Below, piece by piece: positions 6,680 to 54,975 of a stretch of 64,000 nt of DNA (positions are counted from its first letter, which is position 1; every line of letters begins with the position of its first letter). The notes beneath the pieces are model-generated. The model saw only the letters and a list, made by a program, of their open reading frames with translations. It was not told where the DNA came from and did not search any database. A program made the translations under genes and the position numbers. Source of the DNA: an uncultured Nanoarchaeota archaeon (GTDB lineage: Archaea; Nanobdellota; Nanobdellia; Pacearchaeales; GW2011-AR1); the NCBI GenBank assembly GCA_963743615.1, contig CAVUQF010000003.1, positions 132,944-196,943 on the forward strand, read 5' to 3'.

Positions 6680-8120
6680 TTTCTATCTTGTTAAATAATA
6701 TTTCTCCTTTTTTAATTTTTCCTACTTTGAGAGGTTCCATGATTTCTTTTAGACTTCCATTCTTTATCTTAAAATTAAACTGTTGTGCAATCTTTTCAGA
6801 AGTTGAAGGAATAAATGGCCATAACAGAATTGCAATGGCTTTTATAGAATCTGCAACTTCGTAAAGGACCTTTGTATCTTTTGTTTCCCATGGTTTTTCA
6901 TTTTGTATATATTCATTGCATTTGTCAATAAACTCGAAAATTAAATTTAGTGCTTTGTCAAATTCAAGAGTTTCCATTTTCTTTTTTATTTCACTTATTT
7001 TTAACTCCTTGATTAATTTATTTTCCGTTTTTTTTATCTCATATTTTTCAGCCAGACCTGCAATTCTACGAACAAGATTACCCAGTTTGTCTGCCAACTC
7101 ATTATTATGCCTTATAATAAGGTCTTTTTCAGAGAAGTCTCCATCTTCTCCAAAAACAGTATTTCTAAATAAGAAATATCTTGCAGAGTCAACGCCCGCA
7201 ATTGAAATTAGCTGATCTACGTTAATTACTTTTCCTGCCGATTTTGAAATTTTTTCCTTGTTAAAAGTCCACCAGCCATGTGCAAAAACTTTTCTTGGCA
7301 GTTCAATTCCTGCAGACATTAACATTGCAGGCCAATAAACGGTATGAAACCAGATTATGTCTTTTCCTATTAAGTGAATGTCGGCAGGCCAAAATTTCTC
7401 TCTTCCTTTTATTCTTGTTGCAGAATAATAATTAAGCAAAGCATCAAACCAGACATAAGCTATATGTTTATTATCAAAAGGTAATTTGATTCCCCAATCG
7501 AAAGATGTTCTAGAGATGCTTAGATCTTTTAATCCCTCTTTTATTCTGTTTATTACTTCTTTCCCCCTATAAGATGGGGAGATAAATTCAGGATTCCTTT
7601 TGTATAGATCTAGTAGCTTTTTTTGATATTTTGAAAGCCTAAAAAAATAGCTCTTTTCTTTTAATAGTTCCACCGGTTTTTTGTGAATAGGGCAGCATCC
7701 GTTTACTAAGTCTTTTTCGGTATAATAGGCTTCACATGCAGTGCAATAATATCCTTCGTATTCTCCAAGATAGATATCCCCCCTATCATATACTTTTTGT
7801 AATACTTCTTTTACAACTTTTTCATGTTCTTTGTCTGTTGTTCTGATAAAATAATCATAATCCAAATTTAATTTTTTCCAGGCGTCTTTGAATTTTGGAA
7901 TTAGTTCATCAACGAAATCTTTTGGCGTCTGGTCTTTTTTCTCTGCAGCTTCTTGAATCTTTTTTCCATGTTCATCTGTTCCTGTAAGGAAGAAGACATC
8001 ATTCCCAAGAAGCTTATTCCATCTAGCTAAAATATCTGCAGCTATGGTAGTATAAGCATGACCAATGTGGGGTATATCATTTGGATAATAGATCGGTGTA
8101 GTTACATAAAATTTTTTCAT
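6672..8120 (-). CDS. metG: Methionine--tRNA ligase (short, single Zn-knuckle type)
   Basis: YVTTPIYYPNDIPHIGH, KISKS, CxxC..CPIH knuckle, YVWFDALLNY. Confidence 0.95.
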   Translation of the reverse strand: MKKFYVTTPIYYPNDIPHIGHAYTTIAADILARWNKLLGNDVFFLTGTDEHGKKIQEAAEKKDQTPKDFVDELIPKFKDAWKKLNLDYDYFIRTTDKEHEKVVKEVLQKVYDRGDIYLGEYEGYYCTACEAYYTEKDLVNGCCPIHKKPVELLKEKSYFFRLSKYQKKLLDLYKRNPEFISPSYRGKEVINRIKEGLKDLSISRTSFDWGIKLPFDNKHIAYVWFDALLNYYSATRIKGREKFWPADIHLIGKDIIWFHTVYWPAMLMSAGIELPRKVFAHGWWTFNKEKISKSAGKVINVDQLISIAGVDSARYFLFRNTVFGEDGDFSEKDLIIRHNNELADKLGNLVRRIAGLAEKYEIKKTENKLIKELKISEIKKKMETLEFDKALNLIFEFIDKCNEYIQNEKPWETKDTKVLYEVADSIKAIAILLWPFIPSTSEKIAQQFNFKIKNGSLKEIMEPLKVGKIKKGEILFNKIEND

Positions 8121-9053: not shown

Positions 9054-9167
9054 GCCTCAGTAGCTCAGTTGGTAAGAGCGCAACATTGGTACGCGAGAAA
9101 AATACTTTACTCTTTTCGCCTAAACCCAAAGATGTTGAGGTCCTGAGTTCAATCCTCAGCTGAGGCT
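9054..9167 (+). tRNA. tRNA-Thr(GGT) with 40-nt intron at 37/38 (9092-9131)
   Basis: Acceptor GCCTCAG/CTGAGGC, U73, D-arm GCTC/GAGC, anticodon stem CAACA/TGTTG, T-arm CTGAG-TTCAATC-CTCAG; TTGG (32-35) pairs with intron CCAA as the BHB central helix. Confidence 0.93.
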
Positions 9168-9179
9168 AAAAATTTTAAA
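9157..9179 (+). repeat. 23-bp direct repeat copy 1 (tRNA-Thr 3' end plus aaaaattttaaa)
   Basis: cagctgaggctaaaaattttaaa is identical at 9157-9179 and 9730-9752. Confidence 0.95.
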
Positions 9180-9226
9180 TTTAATGTATCCGAAAAGTCT
9201 TTAATCTCTTAAAATTTTATATTTCT

Positions 9227-9670
9227 ATGAACATAAGGGATTTTATAGTAAAAGCAAAGAAGAGCACATATGCAAGTGGTAAAAAACCTAAATTATTAGA
9301 TGATGGATTTGAAGAATTTTTTTATAAAGAAGAAGATTATGAATATCGAGATAGATATTATGCTAAAGATCCAAGACCTTTTGGTGGAGAAGAAGTTGTT
9401 TGGAAAAAAGGGAAAGCAGTCTGGATTATGAATTATTATGGTTTTGTTTTAGACAATAAAATAGGAAGTGCTACTTTGTATGGCTTCTTAAGAAAAGCTA
9501 TGAGCCTTGTGTCAAAAGATAGCCCATTTAGGGGTGCTAATTTAGAGGAAGGCGATTTTGAATATAAAAATCAAAGCGAGGGTGATATAGCTCGATTTAA
9601 TGGAGTTGAAAGAATTTTCTTTAAAGGGAAAGAAGTTTACAGATTAGAATATCATGGTGGAGAATTGTAA
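9227..9670 (+). CDS. DUF5680-like hypothetical protein (cassette 1 cargo)
   Basis: FIVKAKKSTYAS...YRDRYY...FGGEEVVW....VWIMNYYG...FLRKAM....PFRG pattern recalled for DUF5680. Confidence 0.75.
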   Translation: MNIRDFIVKAKKSTYASGKKPKLLDDGFEEFFYKEEDYEYRDRYYAKDPRPFGGEEVVWKKGKAVWIMNYYGFVLDNKIGSATLYGFLRKAMSLVSKDSPFRGANLEEGDFEYKNQSEGDIARFNGVERIFFKGKEVYRLEYHGGEL

Positions 9671-9693
9671 TTTTTTTCTTAAAATAAATCTAC

Positions 9694-9752
9694 AATAAAG
9701 CCTCAAAAACTAAACTCTTGTTTTGTACACAGCTGAGGCTAAAAATTTTAAA
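9694..9752 (+). repeat. Cassette-terminal hairpin repeat copy A plus 23-bp repeat copy 2
   Basis: aataaagcctcaaaaactaaactcttgttttgtacacagctgaggct; inverted arms agcctca (9699-9705) / tgaggct (9734-9740). Confidence 0.92.
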
Positions 9753-9774
9753 GTAATAAAAGATTGATTACATT

Positions 9775-10329
9775 GTGGATCTAATACTATTAAGACATGT
9801 AGAATCTAAAAGTAATAAAGAAGATAAAGCAGATTCTCAAATGGATAGTGAATTAACTGAGAAAGGCAAAAAGGAAGCTAAAGAATTAATTTCCAAACTC
9901 AGAGGATTGTCAATAGATGTTGTTATTGTCAGTCCATTAAAAAGAACACTGGATACTATTAAACCTTTTTTAGAATCAGTAAAATCAAAACCAAAGGTTA
10001 TTACGAGTAAGCTGACAGTTGAAAGGGATTTGGGGAAATTTACCGGAAGTAAAATGGGAGATTTTCAGAAATACTGCGAAGAAAAAAATTTAGATAAAGT
10101 CTTTCAGAAACCTGAAGGAGGAGAGTCTATTTTTGATATGTATAAAAGGGCCAAAAAGTTATTTTCTTATCTTAAGAAAAGTTATAAGAAAAAGAATATC
10201 TTACTTTGTGGACATAAGAATTTTCTTTTATGTCTTGAAATTGCAATAACTAATAAAAAAATTGAAGATTATTACTCTTATCAGCCACTAGAGACAGGAG
10301 AATTTAGAGAACTAAAACTAAATGTATAA
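9775..10329 (+). CDS. Histidine phosphatase (phosphoglycerate mutase family; cassette 2 cargo)
   Basis: LLRHVES (RHG variant), SPLKRTLDT, PEGGES, CGH; GTG start. Confidence 0.85.
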   Translation: MDLILLRHVESKSNKEDKADSQMDSELTEKGKKEAKELISKLRGLSIDVVIVSPLKRTLDTIKPFLESVKSKPKVITSKLTVERDLGKFTGSKMGDFQKYCEEKNLDKVFQKPEGGESIFDMYKRAKKLFSYLKKSYKKKNILLCGHKNFLLCLEIAITNKKIEDYYSYQPLETGEFRELKLNV

Positions 10330-10375
10330 TAAAAGCCTCAAAAAATAAACTATTGTTTTTTACACTGCTGAGGCT
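10328..10375 (+). repeat. Cassette-terminal hairpin repeat copy B
   Basis: aataaaagcctcaaaaaataaactattgttttttacactgctgaggct; 4 substitutions versus copy A from gcctca to gaggct. Confidence 0.92.
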
Positions 10376-10386
10376 TATTAATTAAT

Positions 10387-10394
10387 TTTATAAA
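10387..10394 (+). promoter_or_regulatory. TATA box (tttataaa) at -29..-22 of ATG 10416
   Basis: Same octamer at the same offset precedes ATG 15813 and ATG 17536. Confidence 0.65.
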
Positions 10395-10415: not shown

Positions 10416-10907
10416 ATGCCAAAAGAAACCAAGCTTGGTTTAGATGAATTGAAGAAAAGGTATAAAGAATTGCAGAACAAATATCATCTTCCAGATTTTG
10501 ATTCTTTAAATCATGATTTTTATGCCGAGAAAATCTCTGAGATTGAGACAGATGTTTTGACAAGAGAGATTAGAAGGTTTATGGCAGATAGGATTTATAA
10601 TTATTTAAGATTTATAGAGACAATACTTAATCCTGTTAATGTTCCGATGTTCATCTTTTCGATTATAAAATCATTAGACTCCTCTGATAAAAAAAAGCTT
10701 TCTGATCTTTATGCAAGATTATCAGAAATAAATATAGAACTGATAAAGTTGGATATAGACTCCAATGAAAAAAAGGATGCAGAATTTATTAACCAGGTCT
10801 ATGAGTCCTGGCAGTCAATAAAAAAAGATCTATCTTCTGTTGTTAATAGGTTTAAGGATAATAAAGAAGTAAAGGAAGATAAGAATAGTACCAGATACTT
10901 TGGATAA
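10416..10907 (+). CDS. Conserved hypothetical protein
   Basis: 163-aa helical ORF (KYHLPDFDSLNHDF...YLRFIETILNP). Confidence 0.7.
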   Translation: MPKETKLGLDELKKRYKELQNKYHLPDFDSLNHDFYAEKISEIETDVLTREIRRFMADRIYNYLRFIETILNPVNVPMFIFSIIKSLDSSDKKKLSDLYARLSEINIELIKLDIDSNEKKDAEFINQVYESWQSIKKDLSSVVNRFKDNKEVKEDKNSTRYFG

Positions 10908-15812: not shown

Positions 15813-17472
15813 ATGAAGAAGAGGGATAGAAGTAAAAGTAACATTTTTTATTATTTAGCCTTGGGTGTGACTTTGGTTATGCTGTTTTTATTTTTTAAAA
15901 CATTTTTCACAGGGTATGTTGTATCTAGCCCAACTGCCAATGGGAATACCTCTCTCAATAACTATGTTTTACTGACAAGTCCTAATGTGACTTTGTTACA
16001 ATTGGTTGAGGTTTACAACAGTAGTACGAACTCATCAACATATAGGACAACGGGGTATTTCAATGATTATGTTGAGTATAATAACGTTATGAGTGGGACA
16101 ACATATAAAACAAACATTCCGACTAGTCCGGGAAGCACGTCCATGGTGATTAATGGGATTTTGTATAACCTATCTTATGGTGGAAGTGTAGGATCATCAA
16201 ATTCTTGGGCACAAATAAATAAGTTAAATGGAACTGGTAATTTAACGCTCGCATCTTTAAGTTCCAACCTTAGTACGGGTAATTATCTTCTATTGACAAA
16301 TCCTAATCCTCTGGAATATAATGCAATTTTGTTACAATTGGTTGAGGTTTACAACAGTAGTACGAACTTATCAACATATAGGACAACGGGGTATTTCAAT
16401 GATTATGTTGAGTATAATAACGTTATGAGTGGGACAACATATAAAACAAACATTCCGACTAGTCCGGGAAGCACGTCCATGGTGATTAATGGGATTTTGT
16501 ATAACCTATCTTATGGTGGAAGTGTAGGATCATCAAATTCTTGGGCACAAATAATCTCCTCAGCTAATCCTTCTTGTGCTCCTAAAACCTGTTTACAGTT
16601 AAATGATACTTGTGGCAGTGTAAGTAATGGTTGCAATGGAACATTATCCTGTGGGACTTGTAATGGAACTCAAGTTTGTTCTTCTGGTAAGTGTTATGGT
16701 ACTGGTGCTTTACCTTGTGCTCCTAAAACCTGTTTACAGTTAAATGATACTTGTGGCAGTGTAAGTAATGGTTGTGGAGGAACGCTGTCTTGTGGATCTT
16801 GTTCTAGTGGATCAGTTTGTACTTCTAATAAATGTGTATGTGCTCCTAAAACCTGTTTACAGTTAAATGATACTTGTGGCAGTGTAAGTAATGGTTGCAA
16901 TGGAACATTATCCTGTGGGACTTGTAATGGAACTCAAGTTTGTTCTTCTGGTAAGTGTTATGGTACTGGTGCTTTACCTTGTGCTCCTAAAACCTGTTTA
17001 CAGTTAAATGATACTTGTGGCAGTGTAAGTAATGGTTGCAATGGAACATTATCCTGTGGGACTTGTAATGGAATCAAGTTTGTTCTTCTGGTAAGTGTTA
17101 TGGTACTGGTGCTTTACCTTGTGCTCCTAAAACCTGTTTACAGTTAAATGATACTTGTGGCAGTGTAAGTAATGGTTGCAATGGAACATTATCCTGTGGA
17201 ACTTGTAATGGAATCAAGTTTGTTCTTCTGGTAAGTGTTATGGTACTGGTGCTTTACCTTGTGCTCCTAAAACCTGTTTACAGTTAAATGATACTTGTGG
17301 CAGTGTAAGTAATGGTTGTGGAGGAACGCTGTCTTGTGGATCTTGTTCTAGTGGGAAACTTTGCTCTGCAGGAAAATGTATCTGTGAGCCAACAGGATAT
17401 CTTGCTTGGTTTAGTGGTGGAGCAGCTACCTGTTGCAGTAAGCAGACTACTTGGTATGGGACTTGTAAGTAA
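15813..17472 (+). CDS. Surface protein: N-terminal anchor/signal, duplicated ~75-aa module, six Cys-rich repeats; frameshifted at about 17073 and 17213
   Basis: ORF 15813-17147 plus downstream Cys repeats ending ...CCSKQTTWYGTCK at TAA 17470-17472; repeat CAPKTCLQLNDTCGSVSNGCNGTLSCGTC. Confidence 0.8.
15992..16554 (+). repeat. ~227-bp intragenic direct repeat (15992-16218 and 16328-16554)
   Basis: Copies 336 bp apart, one mismatch seen (aactcatca/aacttatca). Confidence 0.92.
16575..17400 (+). repeat. Tandem Cys-rich repeat array, units starting at 16575, 16716, 16839, 16980, 17120, 17260
   Basis: Unit lengths 141, 123, 141, 140, 140 nt, each starting tgtgctcctaaaacc. Confidence 0.93.
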
Positions 17473-18087: not shown

Positions 18088-18140
18088 GATTTATTCTTAA
18101 ACAAAATTCTTTTAAATCAACTTATTGTTAAAGTATTAGT

Positions 18141-18292
18141 GCCCCCGTAGTTTAGAGGCCAAGAATGCGGCCCTCTCAACAGTGATTTTGCCTTGTCGAA
18201 AGGTTGAAATCTAGCATCTCAATGCAACTGCTTTGAGCTCATTTAGAGCTTGGAGAACGGCCGTGACCCGAGTTCAAATCTCGGCAGGGGCA
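18141..18292 (+). tRNA. tRNA-Glu(CTC) with 79-nt intron at 37/38 (18179-18257)
   Basis: GCCCCCG/CAGGGGC acceptor (one C-A mismatch), anticodon stem CGGCC/GGCCG, loop CT-CTC-A|C, T-arm CCGAG-TTCAAAT-CTCGG; CTCT pairs with intron GGAG (BHB helix). Confidence 0.9.
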
Positions 18293-18336
18293 TCTTTAAT
18301 TAGTTTTTTATACCCCTTTCATCTAACTTTTGTAAT

Positions 18337-18409
18337 AGCCTCGTAGTACAGTGGTCAAGTATACAAGCCTCTGGAGCTTGTGACCCAGGTTCGAATCCTG
18401 GCGAGGCTA
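18337..18409 (+). tRNA. tRNA-Gln(CTG)
   Basis: AGCCTCG/CGAGGCT acceptor, CAAGC-CT-CTG-GA-GCTTG anticodon arm, CCAGG-TTCGAAT-CCTGG T-arm. Confidence 0.95.
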
Positions 18410-18423
18410 TTTTATAGAAAGAG

Positions 18424-26471: not shown

Positions 26472-26477
26472 ATATTA

Positions 26478-26559
26478 CGCCAGTGCTAGGATTTGAACCT
26501 AGGAGCCCCGAAGGGCACGGTTTTCGAGACCGTTCCATTAACCGCTCTGGCACACTGGC
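26478..26559 (-). tRNA. tRNA-Ser(CGA)
   Basis: GCCAGTG/CACTGGC, ACGGT-CT-CGA-AA-ACCGT, long variable arm GCCC-TTCG-GGGC, CCTAG-GTTCAAAT-CCTAG, G73. Confidence 0.95.
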
Positions 26560-27241
26560 ATATTCTTTTTAATTTTTCTTGTTTCTTTGAATGATTAAAT
26601 CCAATTACTTTATAAAATTTTTTTACATTTTCTTTTCCATTAATAAACAATAAATAATTTATATTCCAATTGGGATTTTTTCTTTTGTAAGAATAAACCT
26701 TTGAAGTTATACCAAATTCATTTAATAGTTCTTTTATAGATTCTACTCCCCTTTTGCTGACAGTTTGGAAACTAATTCTGCTTTTGCTCGGATAGACATA
26801 CGCTTCACAATCAAAAATAGCCTTTATCCATTCTATTTTTTCTCCTTTTGATTGTAAAATTTTTGGAAATTCCCAGTACAATGATTCAAATTTGGAAATT
26901 GACATTAAATCCTCCCAGGCTGGTTTCGAGCTTACATGAACAATATAGTATTTCTTTAATTTTCTAAATGCTGGTTTTTTTAAGTATAGCTTATTAAAGT
27001 CGTCGAGAAAGAGTTTTAACATTTTTGAATCATCTGGATAAAACCGAATATCATGATGCTTTCCGTTCTGATAATTTTTCATTGAAGTTAAACTTCCATC
27101 TCCCATAAGAAATCCGATTAGTCTTGCTTTTTCTTTTTTTAATTTTAAATGTTTATCTTTTATATGTTCTTTTACTGGGTTATGATATTTTTCCCATCTG
27201 GATTTTAATCCTATTTTACTTAATTCAGAATAATCTTTCAT
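26486..27241 (-). CDS. Free-standing two-motif LAGLIDADG homing endonuclease-like protein; 3' end overlaps tRNA-Ser
   Basis: RLIGFLMGDGSL and EWIKAIFDCEAYV motifs; final IGFNHSKKQEKL segment; stop TAG lies inside the tRNA. Confidence 0.85.
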   Translation of the reverse strand: MKDYSELSKIGLKSRWEKYHNPVKEHIKDKHLKLKKEKARLIGFLMGDGSLTSMKNYQNGKHHDIRFYPDDSKMLKLFLDDFNKLYLKKPAFRKLKKYYIVHVSSKPAWEDLMSISKFESLYWEFPKILQSKGEKIEWIKAIFDCEAYVYPSKSRISFQTVSKRGVESIKELLNEFGITSKVYSYKRKNPNWNINYLLFINGKENVKKFYKVIGFNHSKKQEKLKRICQCARAVNGTVSKTVPFGAPRFKS

Positions 27242-47011: not shown

Positions 47012-48373
47012 ATGGCATTGAGTGTTTTTGGTTCAAAGAGGGGTATATCTTCGATTATTGCTACATTGATATTGGTTCTCTTAACTATTGTTTTGATAGG
47101 AATAATCTGGGCTGTTGTAAATAATCTAGTAACCACTTCATCGAAGCAGATTTCTTCTGGTGAGGCATGTTTAACCTCTCAGGTTCAGACTGTTTCTTTT
47201 TTATGTACTCAATCTGGAAGTGATTGCAATGTTACAATAAAAAGAACTTCAGGGGGAGATCCTATTGGAGGAATTAGACTAGTTTTTATTAATGATAATC
47301 AAGACTCAAATAGTAGTTATTCTTTGGGAGATATTCAAACACTCGCGACCAAGGTTATCCATGTTACAAATATCGGTGTTTCCAATATAACTCAGGTAGG
47401 CTCTGCAATTTATTTTTTGGATTCTTCTGGGACTATTTCTCCTTGCTCTGTTTTAAGTGAATCTGTGGGAATGGTAAACTCTCAGACAGGGCTTACGGGG
47501 AGTTCGGAAGGACAATCTGGAGGGTCTTCAGGAGGATCTTCAGGAGGATCTTCGAATGGAGGAAGTTCAGGATCGAATACTTATTCGTGCGTTCCTGAAG
47601 GTTCAGATATTGCATCGCTTTGTACAAATTATCAGTGCGGGTTTGTGAATAATGGAACTTGCGGGATTGTATCTTGCGGACAGTGTGGAGTTTCACAATA
47701 TTGTGATTCAAGTCATACTTGCCAAAATTCAGGGAGTACATGTACTCCTTCGGTTGATCCAACTTTTTCAATTCTTTGCGGGAGCTATCAGTGTGGGTAT
47801 GTAGGCAATGGTACTTGCGGAAGTGTAAGTTGCGGAACATGTGGCACAGGCCAGTATTGTGATTTAGGTACCAATATGTGTGATAATATTTCAACCTGTA
47901 TTTCGGCTCCTTCAGATTTTTGTTCATCCCATAATTATCAGTGCGGACAGTTTAACAATGGGACCTGTGGGAATATGATTTCTTGCGGCATTTTAGGAAC
48001 CTCCGATGGCTGCAGTATTCCTTCTTTTTGTAATTCGACTTATCAGTGCCAGTCTCCAGTGATATTAAACTCGGGAGCAGTAACTTCAGTATGGCCCTCT
48101 GGTGCTGTGAGATTTTTCCAAGGAAGTAATCTTCCTTTAGATCAGAGCGATGATGACAACTTAGGGGTTTTGACTAGTTATGTAAGATTCCCTGGCGAAA
48201 CCCATCAAACTGATTGCACTCTAATTTCTTTTGTGCAGTATCTATCCCAATCAGGCAATTCTTTTGTTTCTTTGAGCCTTCCTGTTGGGACCTCGTTGAA
48301 CATAATTGCAGGGGATAATTATGAAATTTGGAGCACTCAGAGTGGATGCTTGCATGCAGCTGGTTTGATTTGA
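47012..48373 (+). CDS. Type IV pilin-like protein with Ser/Gly linker and Cys-rich repeats
   Basis: Class III signal peptide KRG|ISSIIATLILVLLTIVLIGIIW; three ..YQCG..NNGTCG..SCG repeats. Confidence 0.8.
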   Translation: MALSVFGSKRGISSIIATLILVLLTIVLIGIIWAVVNNLVTTSSKQISSGEACLTSQVQTVSFLCTQSGSDCNVTIKRTSGGDPIGGIRLVFINDNQDSNSSYSLGDIQTLATKVIHVTNIGVSNITQVGSAIYFLDSSGTISPCSVLSESVGMVNSQTGLTGSSEGQSGGSSGGSSGGSSNGGSSGSNTYSCVPEGSDIASLCTNYQCGFVNNGTCGIVSCGQCGVSQYCDSSHTCQNSGSTCTPSVDPTFSILCGSYQCGYVGNGTCGSVSCGTCGTGQYCDLGTNMCDNISTCISAPSDFCSSHNYQCGQFNNGTCGNMISCGILGTSDGCSIPSFCNSTYQCQSPVILNSGAVTSVWPSGAVRFFQGSNLPLDQSDDDNLGVLTSYVRFPGETHQTDCTLISFVQYLSQSGNSFVSLSLPVGTSLNIIAGDNYEIWSTQSGCLHAAGLI

Positions 48374-48414
48374 CTTCTAATAAGATTTTTATACTCTTTT
48401 TAGCTTAATCAGCG

Positions 48415-51400
48415 ATGAATAAAAAGAGGTTTTTATTTGTAGTTCTACTGCTAGTTTTTGTCTTGTTTTCTAGCAGAGTTTTTGCGACAACTTATCAGTG
48501 CAATTCCTGTGGAACATGCACTAGCGATCTTTCAAGTGCTTCATCTGGGGATGTTGTCAAGTTGAACACCTCAATAACTTTGGCTTCTTATAATGCGGGA
48601 TGTGTAAATTTTTCAAAATCCAATGTGACTTTTGATTGTCAGAACTATTCCAACTATATCCAAGGTTATGCCTTTTGGGGCATTGGAGTTTACTTTGGCG
48701 GACAGAATAATACAGTTAAGAATTGTAACATATCCAATTTTAATAGTGGAATTTCTTTTGATTACGGAAATTTCGAGTCAGATAATGATACAATAGCCAA
48801 TGTAACTATAAGTAACGGCGATTTTGGAATTGAGCTTTTTGGTTCAAATAACGTCTTGACTAATATAACTACAAGTAATGCTAATAATTACGGAATTTAT
48901 CTAGGTTCAAATTCAGTCAACAATACTTTGTCAAACATAAATGCCACTTTAGGTAATTACGGAATTTATCTAGATTCAAATTCAGTCAACAATACTTTGT
49001 CAAATATAAATGCAAGTTTGGATAATGACGGAATTTATCTAGATTCAAATTCAGTCAACAATACTTTGTCAAATATAAATGCAAGTTTGGATAATGACGG
49101 AATTTATCTAGGTTATTCAATCAACAATACTTTGTCAAACATAAATGCAAGTTTGGATGCCTCCTACGGAATCTGGATCTATTCTGGTTCAGACAATAAC
49201 TTTACTAACATAATCACAGATTTGAGCGCTGATTACGGAATCTATATCTATTCTGATTTAAGTGACAGTATGTTTAGTAATGTGGACACAAGTTCGAAAA
49301 GTCTTTATGGTTATGGAAATGGTGTGGGAATTTATCTAGGTTCAAATTCAGTCAACAATACTTTGTCAAATATAAATGCAAGTTTGGATAATGACGGAAT
49401 TTATCTAGGTTCAAATTCAGTCAACAATACTTTGTCAAATATAAATGCAAGTTTGGATAATGACGGAATTTATCTAGGTTCAAATTCAGTCAACAATACT
49501 TTGTCAAATATAAATGCAAGTTTGGATAATGACGGAATTTATCTAGGTTCAAATTCAGTCAACAATACAAATTCAGTCAACAATACTTTGTCAAATATAA
49601 ATGCCACTTCAGATGGTTACGGAATTTCTCTTAGTAGTTCATATAATAATACTTTGTCAAACATAAATGCAAATTTGGCAGACGATGCTGGGATTTCTGT
49701 TCAAGATTCAAGTGGTAACATATTTTATGATATGAATTTGAGTGGCATTTATATGATTGGTGGTTCAAATAATAACACTTTTGATAATATAACCATAAAT
49801 TCTCCGGAAGATGGAGTTATTTTACAAAGTAGTTCAAATAATACTTTTGAGGATATTGCTCTGATTTCTGGAGGCGATGGATTTAATTTGCAAAGTAGCT
49901 CAATTAATAATACTTTTGATAATATAACCATAAATTCTTCCGGAAATGGAATTTACGCGGATAGGCTCTCTTCAAATAATAATTTAATGGCTGTAACAGT
50001 AGACTCAGCGTCTTACGGGATTGCCATTTCATCTATTGGTAATTCTATGATAAACTCTAACATAAGCGGAAGTAGCTTTCTTAATTTCGATGCTTCTCCA
50101 TCTCAATTTGTAAATCTATCAAATGATACGGTAGATTATTCTTACGAGATATATAATAACTCATTATCTTCCAACTATATTTTCGATCCAACAAATGAAC
50201 CAAATGCGGGTATGATTATCTGCGATGACTGCGATAACGTAACTTACGACAATATGAATTTAAGCCATAAAAATTATGCAGGGTTGTATCTCTCACACAT
50301 CAAATTCTTTTGTTAATAATATTACATCCACCTCAAATTATGATGGTGTCCTTCTGTCTGGTGCAAACAATGAACTTTTCAATGTAACCGCAAATAATGC
50401 TAGTAATTACGGAATTTATCTAGGTTATTCAGTCAACAATACTTTGTCAAACATAAATGCCACTTTAGGTAATTACGGAATTTATCTGATGCAGATTCAG
50501 GGGAGAATACTTTGTCAAACATAAATGCAAGTTTTGATGCCTACGGAATTTCTGATGCAAGTTCAGGGGGGGATACTTTATCAAACATAGTTGCAAATTA
50601 CGATTCTTATTCTGGGGTTTCAGTTGAAGGGCTTGATGACATTTTGACAAATATTACTGCCGATTATATGACATCAAATGGAGGGAGAAGAGCGACTTAT
50701 TCAGCAGTAGAGATAGGGGGATCAAGTAATATAATCTCAAATGTGGATGCATCTTATGCAGTGTCTGAAGGGGGGATTGAGATGGTGGGGGATGAGGATA
50801 GTCTGACAAATATTACTGCTGATTATGATTTTGGTTATGGAATTTCTATTTCTTCTTCACATGATAACGTATTTAGCAACATAGATGCAAGCTACACTTA
50901 TGATAGTGGCGGAGGTTCTTCCGCTGCTTATGGTATAGAAGAACTTTACAGCACGGGGGATACTTGGAATAGTATAAATTCGGTGGGGGATCAGGGGATT
51001 TTATTGACCTCCTCTTCGGGAGATTTGCTATCCGATCTAAGCTTAGGAAATTTTTCAGGATCTTCTTGCGGGATTAACTTAGATTCTTATTCTTCGAATA
51101 ATACTTTGACTAGTGTAGTTGCAAACAATTGTAGTGATTCAAATGCGATTACTCTATACGGTTTCAATAATACATTAATCAATGTAACTGCAGATTTAAG
51201 CTCTAATGATGGAATTTATGTTTCGAATAGGGATAATATTTTGTATGGAATAGTTACAAACTCAGATAATTATGGAATTTATCTTGACGCTGGTTCAAAC
51301 GATGATAATATGACCGATGTTACCTCCTATGGAAATGTATACGGGGTTTATTTTTTTGAGTCTTATGACAATTCATTAACTAGTTCTTATGTTATAAATA

Positions 51401-54400
51401 ATTCCGCTATTGGGTTGGTCTTCGCGGGATCATATTCTAACTATGTATATAACAATTTGTTTAATAATACGGATAATTATGAGAATGTAGGGGGTGATGT
51501 GGAAGCAAATTATTTTAATACTTCTTTAATTTTAGGAACCAATATTCTTGGAGGATCAAATATTGGAGGGAATTATTGGGGCAACTGGAGTGCTCCCGGA
51601 ACCGGATTTTCTGATACTTGTACAGATGTAAATTTTGATGGGATTTGTGATTCTGCTTACCTTTTGTCAGACGGAGTGAACTATGATTACTTGTCTTTGA
51701 GCCTTATTCAACCTCCTGGATCTTCAGGAGGGAGTAGTTCTGGAACCGGATCTTCTGATTCATCATCAATAGGTGAATGGTCGATGTTTGGAAGAAATCT
51801 GGATAATACGAGAAATTATCCTGGATTTGTTAATGTGACTAGTTTTGGACCACTATGGAATTATACTACCGGAGGTTCTATTACTTCTTCTCCAGCTATC
51901 TCCAATGGAGTAGTTTATGTCGGCAGCGATGACGGAAATCTTTATGCTGTTGATGCAGCAAACGGAAATCAGTTATGGAGTTCTGTTATAGGGACTGCCG
52001 TTGGCTCTCCAGCTATCTCCAATGGAGTAGTTTATGTTGGGAATGACGGGGGTTACATTCATGCTATCAATGCAACAGATGGAAGTGCAATTTGGTCTTA
52101 TTATACAGGTGTCAGAGTTGGAATAAGGGCTTCTATTCAACCAGTTGTTGATAACGGAATAGCCTATTTTAATGGGCTTGATGGTAGTATTCATGCCCTT
52201 GATGCAGCAAACGGAAGTCAGTTATGGAATTATAGCACTGGAGGTTCCACTATTACCTCTTCACCGGCGATCTCAAACGGGGTTGTCTATTTTGGAAGTC
52301 AGGTAGGTATTGTCTATGCTGTGAATACAGCAAACGGAGATCAATTATGGAATTATACTACAGGAGATGCTGTTGGATCTCTGGCAATTTCCAATGGAGT
52401 AGTTTATGTTGGTAGTAATAATGGAAATCTTTATGCTCTTGATGCAGCAAACGGAAATCAGTTATGGAGTTATCCTACGGGAGGTGCTGTTGGCTCTCCA
52501 GCTATCTCCAATGGGATAGTTTATGTTGGTAGTAATAATGGAAATCTTTATGCTCTTGATGCAGCAAACGGAAATCAGTTATGGAATTATACTACGGGAG
52601 GTGCTGTTGGCTCTCCAGCTATCTCCAATGGATTAGTTTGGGTTGGAAGTGGCGATGGGAATCTTTATGCTTTTAATACAACAGACGGAAATCAGTTATG
52701 GAATTATCCAATCCCTGCTGAAGGTTCCGTTGGCTCTCCAGCTATCTCCAATGGAGTAGTTTATGTTGGAAGTAATAGCGGAAATCTTTATGCATTTGCT
52801 TATATTGCTCCAGGCGTAGGTTCTTCTGATTCATCATCAATAGGTGAATGGTCGATGTTTGGAAGAAATCTGGATAATACGAGAAATTATCCTGGATTTG
52901 TTAATGTGACTAGTTTTGGACCACTATGGAATTATACTACAGGAGGTGCTGTTGGCTCTCCAGCTATCTCCAATGGAGTAGTTTATGTCGGCAGCGATGA
53001 CGGAAATCTTTATGCTCTTAATTCTACAAACGGAAGTCAGTTATGGAATTATACTACAGAAAGTCTTGTTGATTATTCGCCAGCGATCTCAAACGGAATT
53101 GTCTACTTCGGAAGTTATAATAATCCTGTCTATGCTATTAATTCTACGAACGGAAATCAGTTATGGAATTATACTACAGATAGTATTGTTGATTCTTCTC
53201 CAGCAGTTTACAAGGGAGTAGTTTATATTGGCAGTGCTGCAGGTAATCTTTATGCTCTTAACTCTACAAACGGATATAAGTTATGGAATTATCCAATCCC
53301 TGCTGAAGGTTCTGTTGGCTCTCCAGCTATCTCCAATGGAGTAGTTTATGTTGGAAGTAATAGCGGAAATCTTTATGCTATTAGTGCAATAAACGGAAAT
53401 CAATTATGGAATTATCAAAGCTCTACCGGAGGTTCTGTTGGCTCTCCAGCTATCTCCAATGGAGTAGTTTATGTCGGCAGCGATGACGGAAATCTTTATG
53501 CTATTAGTGCAATAAACGGAAATCAGTTATGGAATTATACTACCGGAGGTTCTGTTGGCTCTCCAGCTATCTCCAATGGAGTAGTTTATGTCGGCAGCGA
53601 TGACGGAAATCTTTATGCTTTTAATACAACAAACGGAAATCAGTTATGGAGTTATACTACGGGAGGTGCTGTTGGCTCTCCAGCTATCTCCAATGGAGTA
53701 GTTTATGTCGGCAGCGATGACGGAAATCTTTATGCTTTTAATACAACAAACGGAAATCAGTTATGGAGTTATACTACGGGAGGTGCTGTTGGCTCTCCGG
53801 CAATTTCCAATGGGATAGTTTATGTTGGAAGTGGCGATGCTAATCTTTATGCATTTTCTTCCAATGTGCCAACAATTACATTGAATGCTCCAGCAGATGA
53901 TTATACTTCTTCTGTATCAAGTGTCACTTTTAATGCCACTGTGGCTTCTATTAGGCAAATTGCAAATGTTTCCTTAATTCTAGACGGGGCGGTAAGTCAG
54001 ACAAATTTTAGCGGAATAGACAATGGAGATTATCTTTTTACATCAGATCTTGCAGATGGAAATTATCTTTGGGCTTATCAGGCATGTGATGTTTCTGACT
54101 CTTGTGCGACTTCACAAGTGCAGAGTTTAACTGTTTCAACTTCAGGAGGAAATAATGGAGGAACAGGAGGTAGCCCTTCAGGGAGTTCGGGAAGTGGAGG
54201 CGGTTCCGGAACTCCGTATGTAGTTGGGAATTCTAATATTTCCAGCACTCCTACAGAATATTCCTTCTATCCGAATATTCCTATAACTATACTGATAAAT
54301 GTAGCCGGGCTTGATTTGACAAAGCTAGTAATTGTGCCAAACAGGACAATCCAGAGTGTTTCAGTGTCTGCAGCTTTGGCTGCTAAAGTGTCCAAAGCAT

Positions 54401-54975
54401 CCTTAAATACTTCCCTGCTTGGTCAGGTATATCAGTCTTTCCAGATAAATACAGTAAATGTAACTGATTCGGATCTGACAAATGCCTCTTTTTATTTCAG
54501 AGTAAACGCAAGTTGGGTAACTGCAAATGATCTTGGTCCGGAAAATGCTGTGTTATTTAGAAACACCGGAACAAGATGGGTTCCAATTAATGCAACTTTT
54601 GTATCAAGTGATTCTAAATATTACTACTACACTGCATTGTCTCCCGGGCTTTCTGAGTATTCCATCTTTGTTGAAAATTCGGAATGCAACTTCGGAGATA
54701 TTAGATGCTTAGGCAATGATTTCCAGTTTTGCAGTCTGAAGGGATCTTGGATGGTTGTACAGGCATGCCAGTATGGATGCAAAGATTTCGCATGCATCCC
54801 AAATCCTAATTCAGCAGGAAACAAGATTGCTGATTTGGTTAATAACATAAAATCCAATACGGGAGAGTATTTGTTTTATCTTGTAATTTTAATTATCCTG
54901 GTAGGAATTTTGCTTTTGGTCTTCCTATTGTACAGATATATCTCTGGGAGATCTGGAGAAAGGAGAAGAAGATAG
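48415..54975 (+). CDS. Giant surface protein (NosD-like parallel beta-helix, two PQQ/BamB-like propellers, PGF-pre-PGF-like domain, C-terminal TM), split by two frameshifts near 50300 and 50490
   Basis: ORFs 48415-50316, 50276-50524 and 50512-54975 continue the same repeat pattern; first and third are in the same frame; SSPAISNGVVYVGSDDGNLYA repeats; FRVNASWV...ALSPGLSEYSI. Confidence 0.85.
48892..49610 (+). repeat. 69-bp (23-aa) beta-helix tandem repeats
   Basis: Units start ggaatttatctag at 48892, 48961, 49030, 49099, 49327, 49396, 49465, 49534; another at 50411. Confidence 0.92.
51751..52940 (+). repeat. 119-bp direct repeat (51751-51869 and 52822-52940) opening each propeller
   Basis: tcttctgattcatcatcaatagg...ggaattatactac, 1071 bp apart; followed by many near-identical ~114-120-bp blade repeats to about 53860. 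Confidence 0.9.

Follow-up and report, generated by a model that had tools for sequence, protein, structure and literature searches.

A tRNA-acceptor-like 42-nt repeat as a candidate att-like boundary site of small gene units beside tRNA-Thr(GGU) in a DPANN-like archaeon

Short attachment (att) sites confined to the acceptor end of a tRNA gene, including those of SNJ2 type, and att sites extending beyond the tRNA gene are known in archaea (PMC8371274), and tRNA fragments occur there as footprints of integration (PMC9897764). Integrons and clusters of attC sites lacking integron-integrases (CALINs) are also known from archaea, some of them in Nanoarchaeota (Ghaly et al. 2022, PMC9668308). We analysed a stretch of 64,000 nucleotides of contig CAVUQF010000003.1 (the window), in which a 42-nt repeat occurs twice downstream of an intron-containing tRNA-Thr(GGU) gene. 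The window has a GC content of ~35% and a second tRNA gene with an intron (tRNA-Glu), and homologues of its genes carry the labels Pacearchaeota, Woesearchaeota or Nanoarchaeota, as expected of a DPANN-like archaeal genome. We propose that the repeat is an att-like DNA boundary site, which delimits small insertion units stacked 3' of tRNA-Thr(GGU), and we give this reading an even chance of being correct.

The features of the locus are all on the plus strand, in the order tRNA-Thr, DUF5680 gene, copy A of the repeat, histidine phosphatase (HisPhos) gene, copy B and an open reading frame (ORF) of 163 aa (Table 1). Copy A, AGCCTCAAAAACTAAACTCTTGTTTTGTACACAGCTGAGGCT, and copy B, AGCCTCAAAAAATAAACTATTGTTTTTTACACTGCTGAGGCT, are both 42 nt long, run from AGCCTCA to TGAGGCT and differ at four element positions (12, 19, 27 and 33), and in coordinates, length and number of differences they are exactly as a first-pass annotation of this DNA had described them. 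The pattern AGCCTCA-N28-TGAGGCT has two matches in the window, against none expected from 100 shuffles, and with the spacer widened to 15–45 nt the matches are still copies A and B only. No further copy was found in the 64 kb by a pattern search with three mismatches or by nhmmer --max, the matches of which were A, B and the 3' end of tRNA-Thr.

The tRNA-Thr gene was recognized by Rfam in E-value mode (55.8 bits, E 6e-11) and by ARAGORN with intron detection, which reported tRNA-Thr(ggt) with i(39,40), a 40-nt intron; it was missed by default ARAGORN and by the gathering mode of Rfam. The intron of ~40 nt is in the canonical position (about 9092–9131). The acceptor stem is GCCUCAG/CUGAGGC with U73 as the discriminator, and the repeat reproduces acceptor pairs 1–6 and U73, as the first-pass annotation had correctly stated, with pair 7 not reproduced. 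The 3' arm of the repeat is a copy of the tRNA 3' end, comprising the last three T-stem bases (CAG), the 3' strand of the acceptor and U73, and the 5' arm is a copy of the acceptor 5' strand; the resemblance of the repeat to an acceptor hairpin is due to these two copied arms. The identity continues beyond the tRNA gene. A 23-mer, CAGCTGAGGCTAAAAATTTTAAA, is present without any difference at 9157–9179 and at 9730–9752, and this core consists of the last 11 nt of tRNA-Thr (CAGCTGAGGCT) and 12 nt of the flank (AAAAATTTTAAA). The second occurrence is the 3' end of copy A together with its flank, so that copy A carries a perfect core; the core of copy B has diverged. The other tRNAs of the window (Glu, Gln, Ile and Ser) have no duplicated 3' ends. 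An observation on the side is that tRNA-Glu(CUC), with a 79-nt intron, at 18140–18294 (+) is directly upstream of tRNA-Gln(CUG) at 18336–18410 (+), and the acceptor stem of the latter, AGCCUCG/CGAGGCU, is one pair off the element arms; no duplicated 3' end was found for tRNA-Gln.

Related contigs contain the locus in filled, duplicated and empty states. The layout of the same-species contigs L002–L007, L083 and L086 is identical to that of the window. In L001/L082 (ENA ERZ25039473 contig_30472), the 573-bp segment with the DUF5680 gene and copy A occurs twice in tandem, with one substitution between the two occurrences. At the internal junction of L001, copy A is followed by the sequence that is normally 3' of the tRNA, which is the junction expected of a circularised unit. 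L008 belongs to a different syntenic relative (MetRS 81%, ParA 84% and HisPhos 88% identical) and is without the DUF5680 unit; its tRNA-Thr (L008 3859–3966) is followed directly by AAAAATTTTAAAGTAATAA and the HisPhos gene. After HisPhos, L008 has one element (L008 4568–4609) and then an ORF unrelated to the 163-aa ORF of the window. The L008 element has 88% identity with copy B, whereas the flanking intergenic DNA is not alignable, and the blastn alignment ends at the last base of the element. The label of a cassette-end repeat, which the first-pass annotation had given to the sequence, is supported.

In a four-way alignment, the junctions tRNA|HisPhos, tRNA|DUF5680, copy A|HisPhos and copy A|DUF5680 share the 23-nt core and diverge on both sides of it. 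As read from the alignment, the four junction types correspond to the attB, attL, attR and attP configurations of conservative recombination. Insertion at the tRNA end fits this arrangement, because the tRNA-proximal unit, that of DUF5680, is the one missing in L008 and the one with the perfect core. The 573-bp segment holds the DUF5680 gene only, with no integrase, replication or virion genes. Two further observations concern the tRNA gene of the locus. In several samples, the short-read contigs of Logan are interrupted exactly at the 3' end of tRNA-Thr, with an overlap of 30 nt, L084 ending at 9167 and L005 and L006 starting at 9138; these breaks were not used as evidence of a branch with alternative units, as another tRNA-Thr isoacceptor sharing the 30-mer explains them equally. 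A relationship of the element interior to the tRNA-Thr intron was also considered on a weak AAAAA..ACTCTT likeness, which was judged to be chance because the intron of the L008 tRNA-Thr is completely different in sequence while the L008 element is the same.

We suggest that each unit would combine a promoter and a site with one leaderless gene or a few genes, and that the units would be stacked immediately 3' of tRNA-Thr(GGU). Whole units would be inserted, deleted or duplicated when an element recombines with the tRNA 3' end or with another element. The crossover would take place inside the shared core CAGCTGAGGCT(AAAAATTTTAAA), presumably with catalysis by a site-specific recombinase encoded elsewhere. 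The hairpin potential of the element may matter when the DNA is single-stranded (ssDNA) or forms a cruciform.

The locus is similar to tRNA att sites in several respects. The far end of the insert repeats the 3' part of the tRNA directly and without any difference (11 nt and 12 nt of flank), the tRNA at the left junction is intact, and the relative L008 has an empty site in which tRNA-Thr stands directly before the HisPhos promoter. The core reaches slightly past the tRNA gene, as it does in archaeal attB sites (PMC8371274). Among three features of an att duplication at a tRNA gene, the 3'-end repeat and the empty site are present, whereas the third, an integrase-bearing insert, is not. The units here are ~0.6 kb long with a single gene and no integrase, in contrast to the roughly 9–23 kb of documented archaeal elements (PMC9897764). 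A further difference is that the repeat includes the complementary 5' strand of the acceptor and an interior of 28 nt that is conserved, and the locus is a stack of several units, all of which end in the same site and carry housekeeping-like cargo.

At least two organisms have the element at the boundaries of unrelated genes, and it is conserved whereas its flanks are not. A second organism was reached from the one genuine match of a metagenome scan (L061, identical to L080), which was extended via its proteins to L078 and L079. It has three elements: el0 is followed by ORF85 with genes of a MazE-type antitoxin and a ParE-like toxin, el1 by a DinB/MDMPI_N-like gene, and el2 by a small ORF. The ParE-like toxin ORF is full-length with 84 aa in one contig and has 63 aa in another contig of the same organism (L078 622–813 vs L080 569–823), which could reflect a frameshifted or inactivated variant. 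Elements of different organisms are as similar to each other as those within one genome. In six distinct copies (A, B, L008, L078 el1, L078 el2 and L079 el0), the element is 42–43 nt long and its 28-nt interior is strongly conserved; 33 alignment columns are invariant, and all but one of these are inside the element or in the AA immediately 5' of it. The T-run of the interior (TTGTTTT(TT)) is variable, from T3 to T6. The element is always on the coding strand, 4–64 nt 3' of a stop codon.

In more distant relatives, homologues of the cargo genes were found in conserved neighbourhoods of an ordinary kind, all of them without the element. HisPhos homologues with 60–67% identity (L009, L072 and L073) are located between a NUDIX/NFACT-R gene and YhbY-S19e-L31e, with CysRS upstream of the locus and a minus-strand tRNA after HisPhos in L072 and L073, and in L010 the HisPhos gene comes after the 23S rRNA. 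The closest DUF5680 homologue (79% identity) is inside an operon of the order eIF2beta-DUF424-DUF5680-eIF1A-NUDIX, and the DinB-like gene has a homologue with 77% identity. A hidden Markov model built from the six copies gave no match in the distant relatives' loci of the same genes, and the neighbourhoods seen in the relatives (eIF2beta-DUF424-eIF1A and CysRS-NUDIX-YhbY-S19e) are absent from the 64-kb window.

The locus also resembles integrons, in that arrays of mostly single-ORF units each carry an imperfect inverted-repeat site and vary in content among the window, L001 and L008. The most recent unit seems to lie beside a fixed primary site, similarity within the family is greater among the sites than among the cargo genes, and one array carries toxin-antitoxin cargo (ORF85 with MazE/ParE), the other cargo being the DUF5680, HisPhos and DinB-like genes. 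Clusters without a linked integrase, such as CALINs, which have at least two bona fide attC sites, are common among integrons as well. The primary site here is, however, the 3' end of a tRNA and not an attI beside intI, no IntI tyrosine recombinase was found, and each unit has its own promoter. The attC sites of integrons are about 55–140 nt long, with paired R and L boxes and a variable central part. With 42–43 nt the element is shorter than the minimum of about 55 nt for attC, and its centre is conserved and not variable. The R''/R' boxes (RYYYAAC/GTTRRRY, with the crossover at G|TT) are lacking, as the arms are AGCCTCA/TGAGGCT with no GTTRRRY at the 3' boundary, and the element shows no L''/L' boxes or pattern of extrahelical bases. 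The first-pass annotation had suggested a folded ssDNA recombination site like attC. A DNA recombination site fits the empty, filled and duplicated junctions in the 23-nt core, whereas the attC features are missing and nothing supports folding as ssDNA specifically.

TATA-like hexamers were surveyed at the 50 window genes that have an upstream spacer of at least 35 nt. They peak sharply at −29 to −27 from the start codons, with 36 hits in those three positions, and this peak indicates that mRNAs are probably predominantly leaderless throughout the window. A recurrent type of transcription factor B recognition element (BRE) and TATA box in the window is 'aagaT/TTTTAAA'. The sequence AAAAATTTTAAA, which follows copy A and in L008 follows the tRNA, places TTTTAA exactly at −29 of the GTG start of HisPhos. 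For the 163-aa ORF, the box that follows copy B is at −29/−28, and by manual count on the sequence the box after L078 el1 is at an equal distance before the DinB-like gene. Because the boxes sit at the standard distance in each case, each unit can be described as a promoter, a leaderless gene and an element. Within the 23-nt core lies the promoter that serves the gene 3' of the insertion point.

The first-pass annotation had claimed that the structure of the repeat, and not just its sequence, is conserved, on the ground of a compensatory pair between the two copies (C9710-G9725 versus A10345-T10360), and had suggested that more copies be checked for covariation. Copies A and B both fold with a 7-bp outer stem and moderate z-scores (RNA z −2.2 and −2.8; DNA z −2.2 and −3.3), with an inner register in the minimum-energy fold of copy B that differs from that of copy A. 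In the six copies, the outer helix is 95% paired and essentially invariant in sequence. The inner helix consists of four A-T-rich pairs behind a 3x7 internal loop, and no continuous 12-bp helix is formed. The proposed compensatory pair, pair 12-27, is C-G in copy A, A-T in copy B and unpaired in the other four of the six copies; no other pair changes on both sides, and an equal score is reached by 74 of 500 column shuffles, so that the covariation is not significant. RNAalifold retained six outer and four inner pairs, with no compensatory pair among them. Uncompensated changes break the stem in two of the six copies: L078 el2 has a C.A mismatch at outer-stem pair 6, and L079 el0 ends in GAGGTA, by which pair 1 is lost and pair 2 becomes G.U. 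Of six strings folded as DNA, three did no better than shuffles, namely L008 (z −0.6), L078 el2 (+0.6) and L079 el0 (−0.4), the L008 and L078 strings being offset by one base. The attractive covariation claim is corrected here as unsupported. A constraint on structure only would predict the opposite of the highly conserved interior; on this alignment the conserved feature is the sequence itself.

Other origins of the repeats were weighed against an att-like boundary site. The repeats could be inert scars, that is, decaying attR-type tRNA fragments left by ordinary tRNA-targeting integrative elements of which the rest, including the integrase, was deleted, and the later duplication and deletion could be due to homologous recombination between scars. 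Partial duplications of tRNA 3' ends are a standard footprint of integration in archaea (PMC9897764; PMC8371274), and att sites as short as the acceptor end, or extending past the tRNA gene, are documented (PMC8371274). The lack of a recombinase nearby and the degeneration of two copies are also in agreement with scars. We nevertheless consider this explanation unlikely, as the units of 0.57–0.9 kb have intact genes with canonical promoters and are not debris, and the 31-nt part of the element that is not from the tRNA, including the complementary 5' arm, is kept across units and organisms while the flanks are unalignable. The cargo genes, moreover, have native homologues in housekeeping contexts of related archaea and are unlike virus or plasmid genes. 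The duplication and the deletion could also have arisen by short-homology recombination at the 23-nt repeat, a mechanism that accounts less well for where the units came from and for the conserved interior of the element. A miniature inverted-repeat transposable element or another small non-autonomous transposon was rejected, since the 7-bp inverted ends come without a flanking duplication and with only two copies in 64 kb, at one locus. A transposition model with target-site duplication leaves the complementary 5' arm unexplained and has an insert without terminal inverted repeats. Readings as a bulge-helix-bulge motif, a C/D box, a terminator or a split tRNA do not fit the sequence.

Functions in the transcript or at the promoter were considered as well. 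In an RNA signal similar to the t-elements of plant mitochondria and Haloferax, an acceptor-stem mimic in the transcript would be cut by RNase P or tRNase Z, or extended by the CCA-adding enzyme, and would define or stabilise mRNA 3' ends or separate co-transcribed units; an RNA minihelix handled by these enzymes was the other proposal of the first-pass annotation. Processing of t-elements by tRNA enzymes is known in plant mitochondria and haloarchaea (PMC1920247 and other papers), RNase P RNA is encoded by the relatives, and the element shares with t-elements an acceptor-stem-like helix, a 3' untranslated position and a derivation from, or resemblance to, a tRNA. The match to acceptor pairs 1–6 and U73 of the adjacent tRNA-Thr, and the constant place on the coding strand 4–64 nt past a stop codon, are what such a signal would have. 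Enzymes of tRNA processing recognize a 12-bp coaxial helix of the acceptor and T-arm. The element has no T-arm equivalent or mimic to complete this helix, its U73 is paired with A(−1), its loop sequence is conserved and not free, and no copy matched Rfam in gathering mode or at E<=10. The absence of covariation, the uncompensated stem breaks in two of the six copies, and the insertion, deletion and duplication junctions that map to the element at the level of DNA also differ from what is expected of t-elements, and we regard an RNA signal as quite improbable. We give similarly little credence to a transcription boundary, in which a terminator, insulator or operator 5–11 nt upstream of the BRE/TATA of the next gene was spread by local duplication together with the promoter. 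Every element adjoins the TATA box of the next gene at the standard −29/−28, the interior has a T-rich run (TTGTTTT(TT)), and the inverted arms could bind a dimeric factor. The HisPhos promoter of L008, however, sits behind the tRNA without any element, the T-run is not conserved (T3 to T6), and no other intergenic region in the 64 kb carries the element; the identity with the tRNA end and the pattern of presence and absence would also be left unexplained. Each of the three explanations, by scars, by an RNA signal and by a transcription boundary, accounts for part of the anatomy and not for the junction and conservation patterns together.

Specific recognition of the att-like boundary site is argued for by the conserved interior and the complementary 5' arm. 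Several points weigh against the proposal and call for caution, mainly because no recombinase is nearby and the copies are few. Among the ~60 ORFs of the window, Pfam and PHROG scans found no integrase, transposase or Cas1-type gene, and no recombinase family is present in the precomputed Pfam annotation of neighbour genes within 10 kb in the related contigs. The copies come from three lineages only, with six distinct copies, and the lineage is rare in public data. A metagenome scan with the pattern AGCCTCAAAAN{20,26}GCTGAGGCT gave 56 stretches, of which one was genuine (L061) and the rest were chance matches; the scan of GTDB representative genomes gave one chance match, in Prevotella, and two scans of viral contigs (IMG/VR) gave chance matches only. 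The 23-nt direct repeat could recombine without a dedicated enzyme, and the spacing of the arms by 28 nt is unlike the usual geometry of a tyrosine-recombinase core site. The tandem duplication is a somewhat fragile single observation from one long-read-style contig that is chimeric further upstream, and gain of the DUF5680 unit in this lineage, as opposed to its loss in L008, is something that we infer. The contig in question, L001/L082, is chimeric upstream of the point matching window position 8051, where it switches inside the MetRS gene to higher-GC genes of heme biosynthesis and chlorite dismutase, probably as an assembly chimera.

Table 1. Features of the tRNA-Thr(GGU) locus, in window coordinates.
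Feature	Position	Strand	Evidence or remark
tRNA-Thr(GGU) gene, anchor of the array	9054..9167	+	Rfam, ARAGORN -i
Core copy 1, attL-like junction	9157..9179	+	Identical 23-mer at 9730-9752
573-bp DUF5680 unit (one permutation of boundaries)	9180..9752	+	Absent in L008, tandem duplicate in L001, four-way alignment
DUF5680 gene, 147 aa, cargo of unit 1	9227..9670	+	Pfam PF18931, E 1e-27
Element copy A	9699..9740	+	Pattern search, folding, HMM (hidden Markov model)
Core copy 2, attR-like, with the BRE/TATA-like promoter of HisPhos as its last 12 nt	9730..9752	+	Alignment; TATA peak
Histidine phosphatase (His_Phos_1) gene, 184 aa, cargo of unit 2	9775..10329	+	Pfam PF00300, E 5e-30
Element copy B	10334..10375	+	Orthologous in position to the single L008 element (L008 4568-4609)
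TATA-like box TTTTATAA of the 163-aa ORF, at -29/-28 as is standard	10386..10393	+	Hexamer survey
163-aa ORF of unknown function, 3' of copy B	10416..10907	+	L008 has a different, unrelated 158-aa ORF at this place

Some features elsewhere in the window were observed on the side. An ORF of 251 aa with a LAGLIDADG_3 domain (homing-endonuclease-like) at 26486–27241 (−) overlaps with its 3' end tRNA-Ser(CGA) at 26477–26560 (−), and it may be a tRNA-associated mobile endonuclease. An ORF of 444 aa at 15813–17147 (+), without a Pfam match, is built of tandem repeats of 336 nt and 140 nt (15983–17346), and the length of the repeat region differs among L001, L002 and the window. Very large repeat proteins are encoded in a cluster at 47012–54975 (+), one of them with 69-nt repeats (48.8–50.6 kb). 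The cluster includes an ORF of 1435 aa with repeats of ~117 nt of the type 'NGVVYVGS.DGNLYALDA.NG..LW', similar in appearance to a beta-propeller (PQQ-like), and its first ORF has a weak archaeal pilin N-terminus.

The genomes of DPANN archaea are tiny, and their ways of gaining and shuffling genes are poorly known. A wider interpretation of the att-like boundary site, which we put forward tentatively as possible but doubtful, is a platform for gene capture in DPANN archaea that would be integron-like and new to description. Its fixed primary site, equivalent to attI, would be the 3' end of tRNA-Thr(GGU), and its mobile cassette site, equivalent to attC, would be a site of 42–54 nt that mimics both strands of the acceptor stem of this tRNA. 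The cassettes would be promoter-bearing and of single genes, such as toxin-antitoxin modules and relocated housekeeping-type genes, and would be moved by an unlinked recombinase, possibly one that recognizes the folded acceptor-like hairpin. Such a system would provide a minimal way of moving single genes, with a tRNA 3' end as the docking point and a short acceptor-mimicking site on each gene. It would be intermediate between the classical tRNA-targeted integration of large elements and the cassette capture of integrons, and its site would serve as a concrete sequence model with which to detect such arrays in metagenomes and to identify the recombinase. If, more modestly, the repeats are att scars that still recombine, the locus nevertheless documents strain-level variation in the copy number and in the presence or absence of single genes at a tRNA gene.

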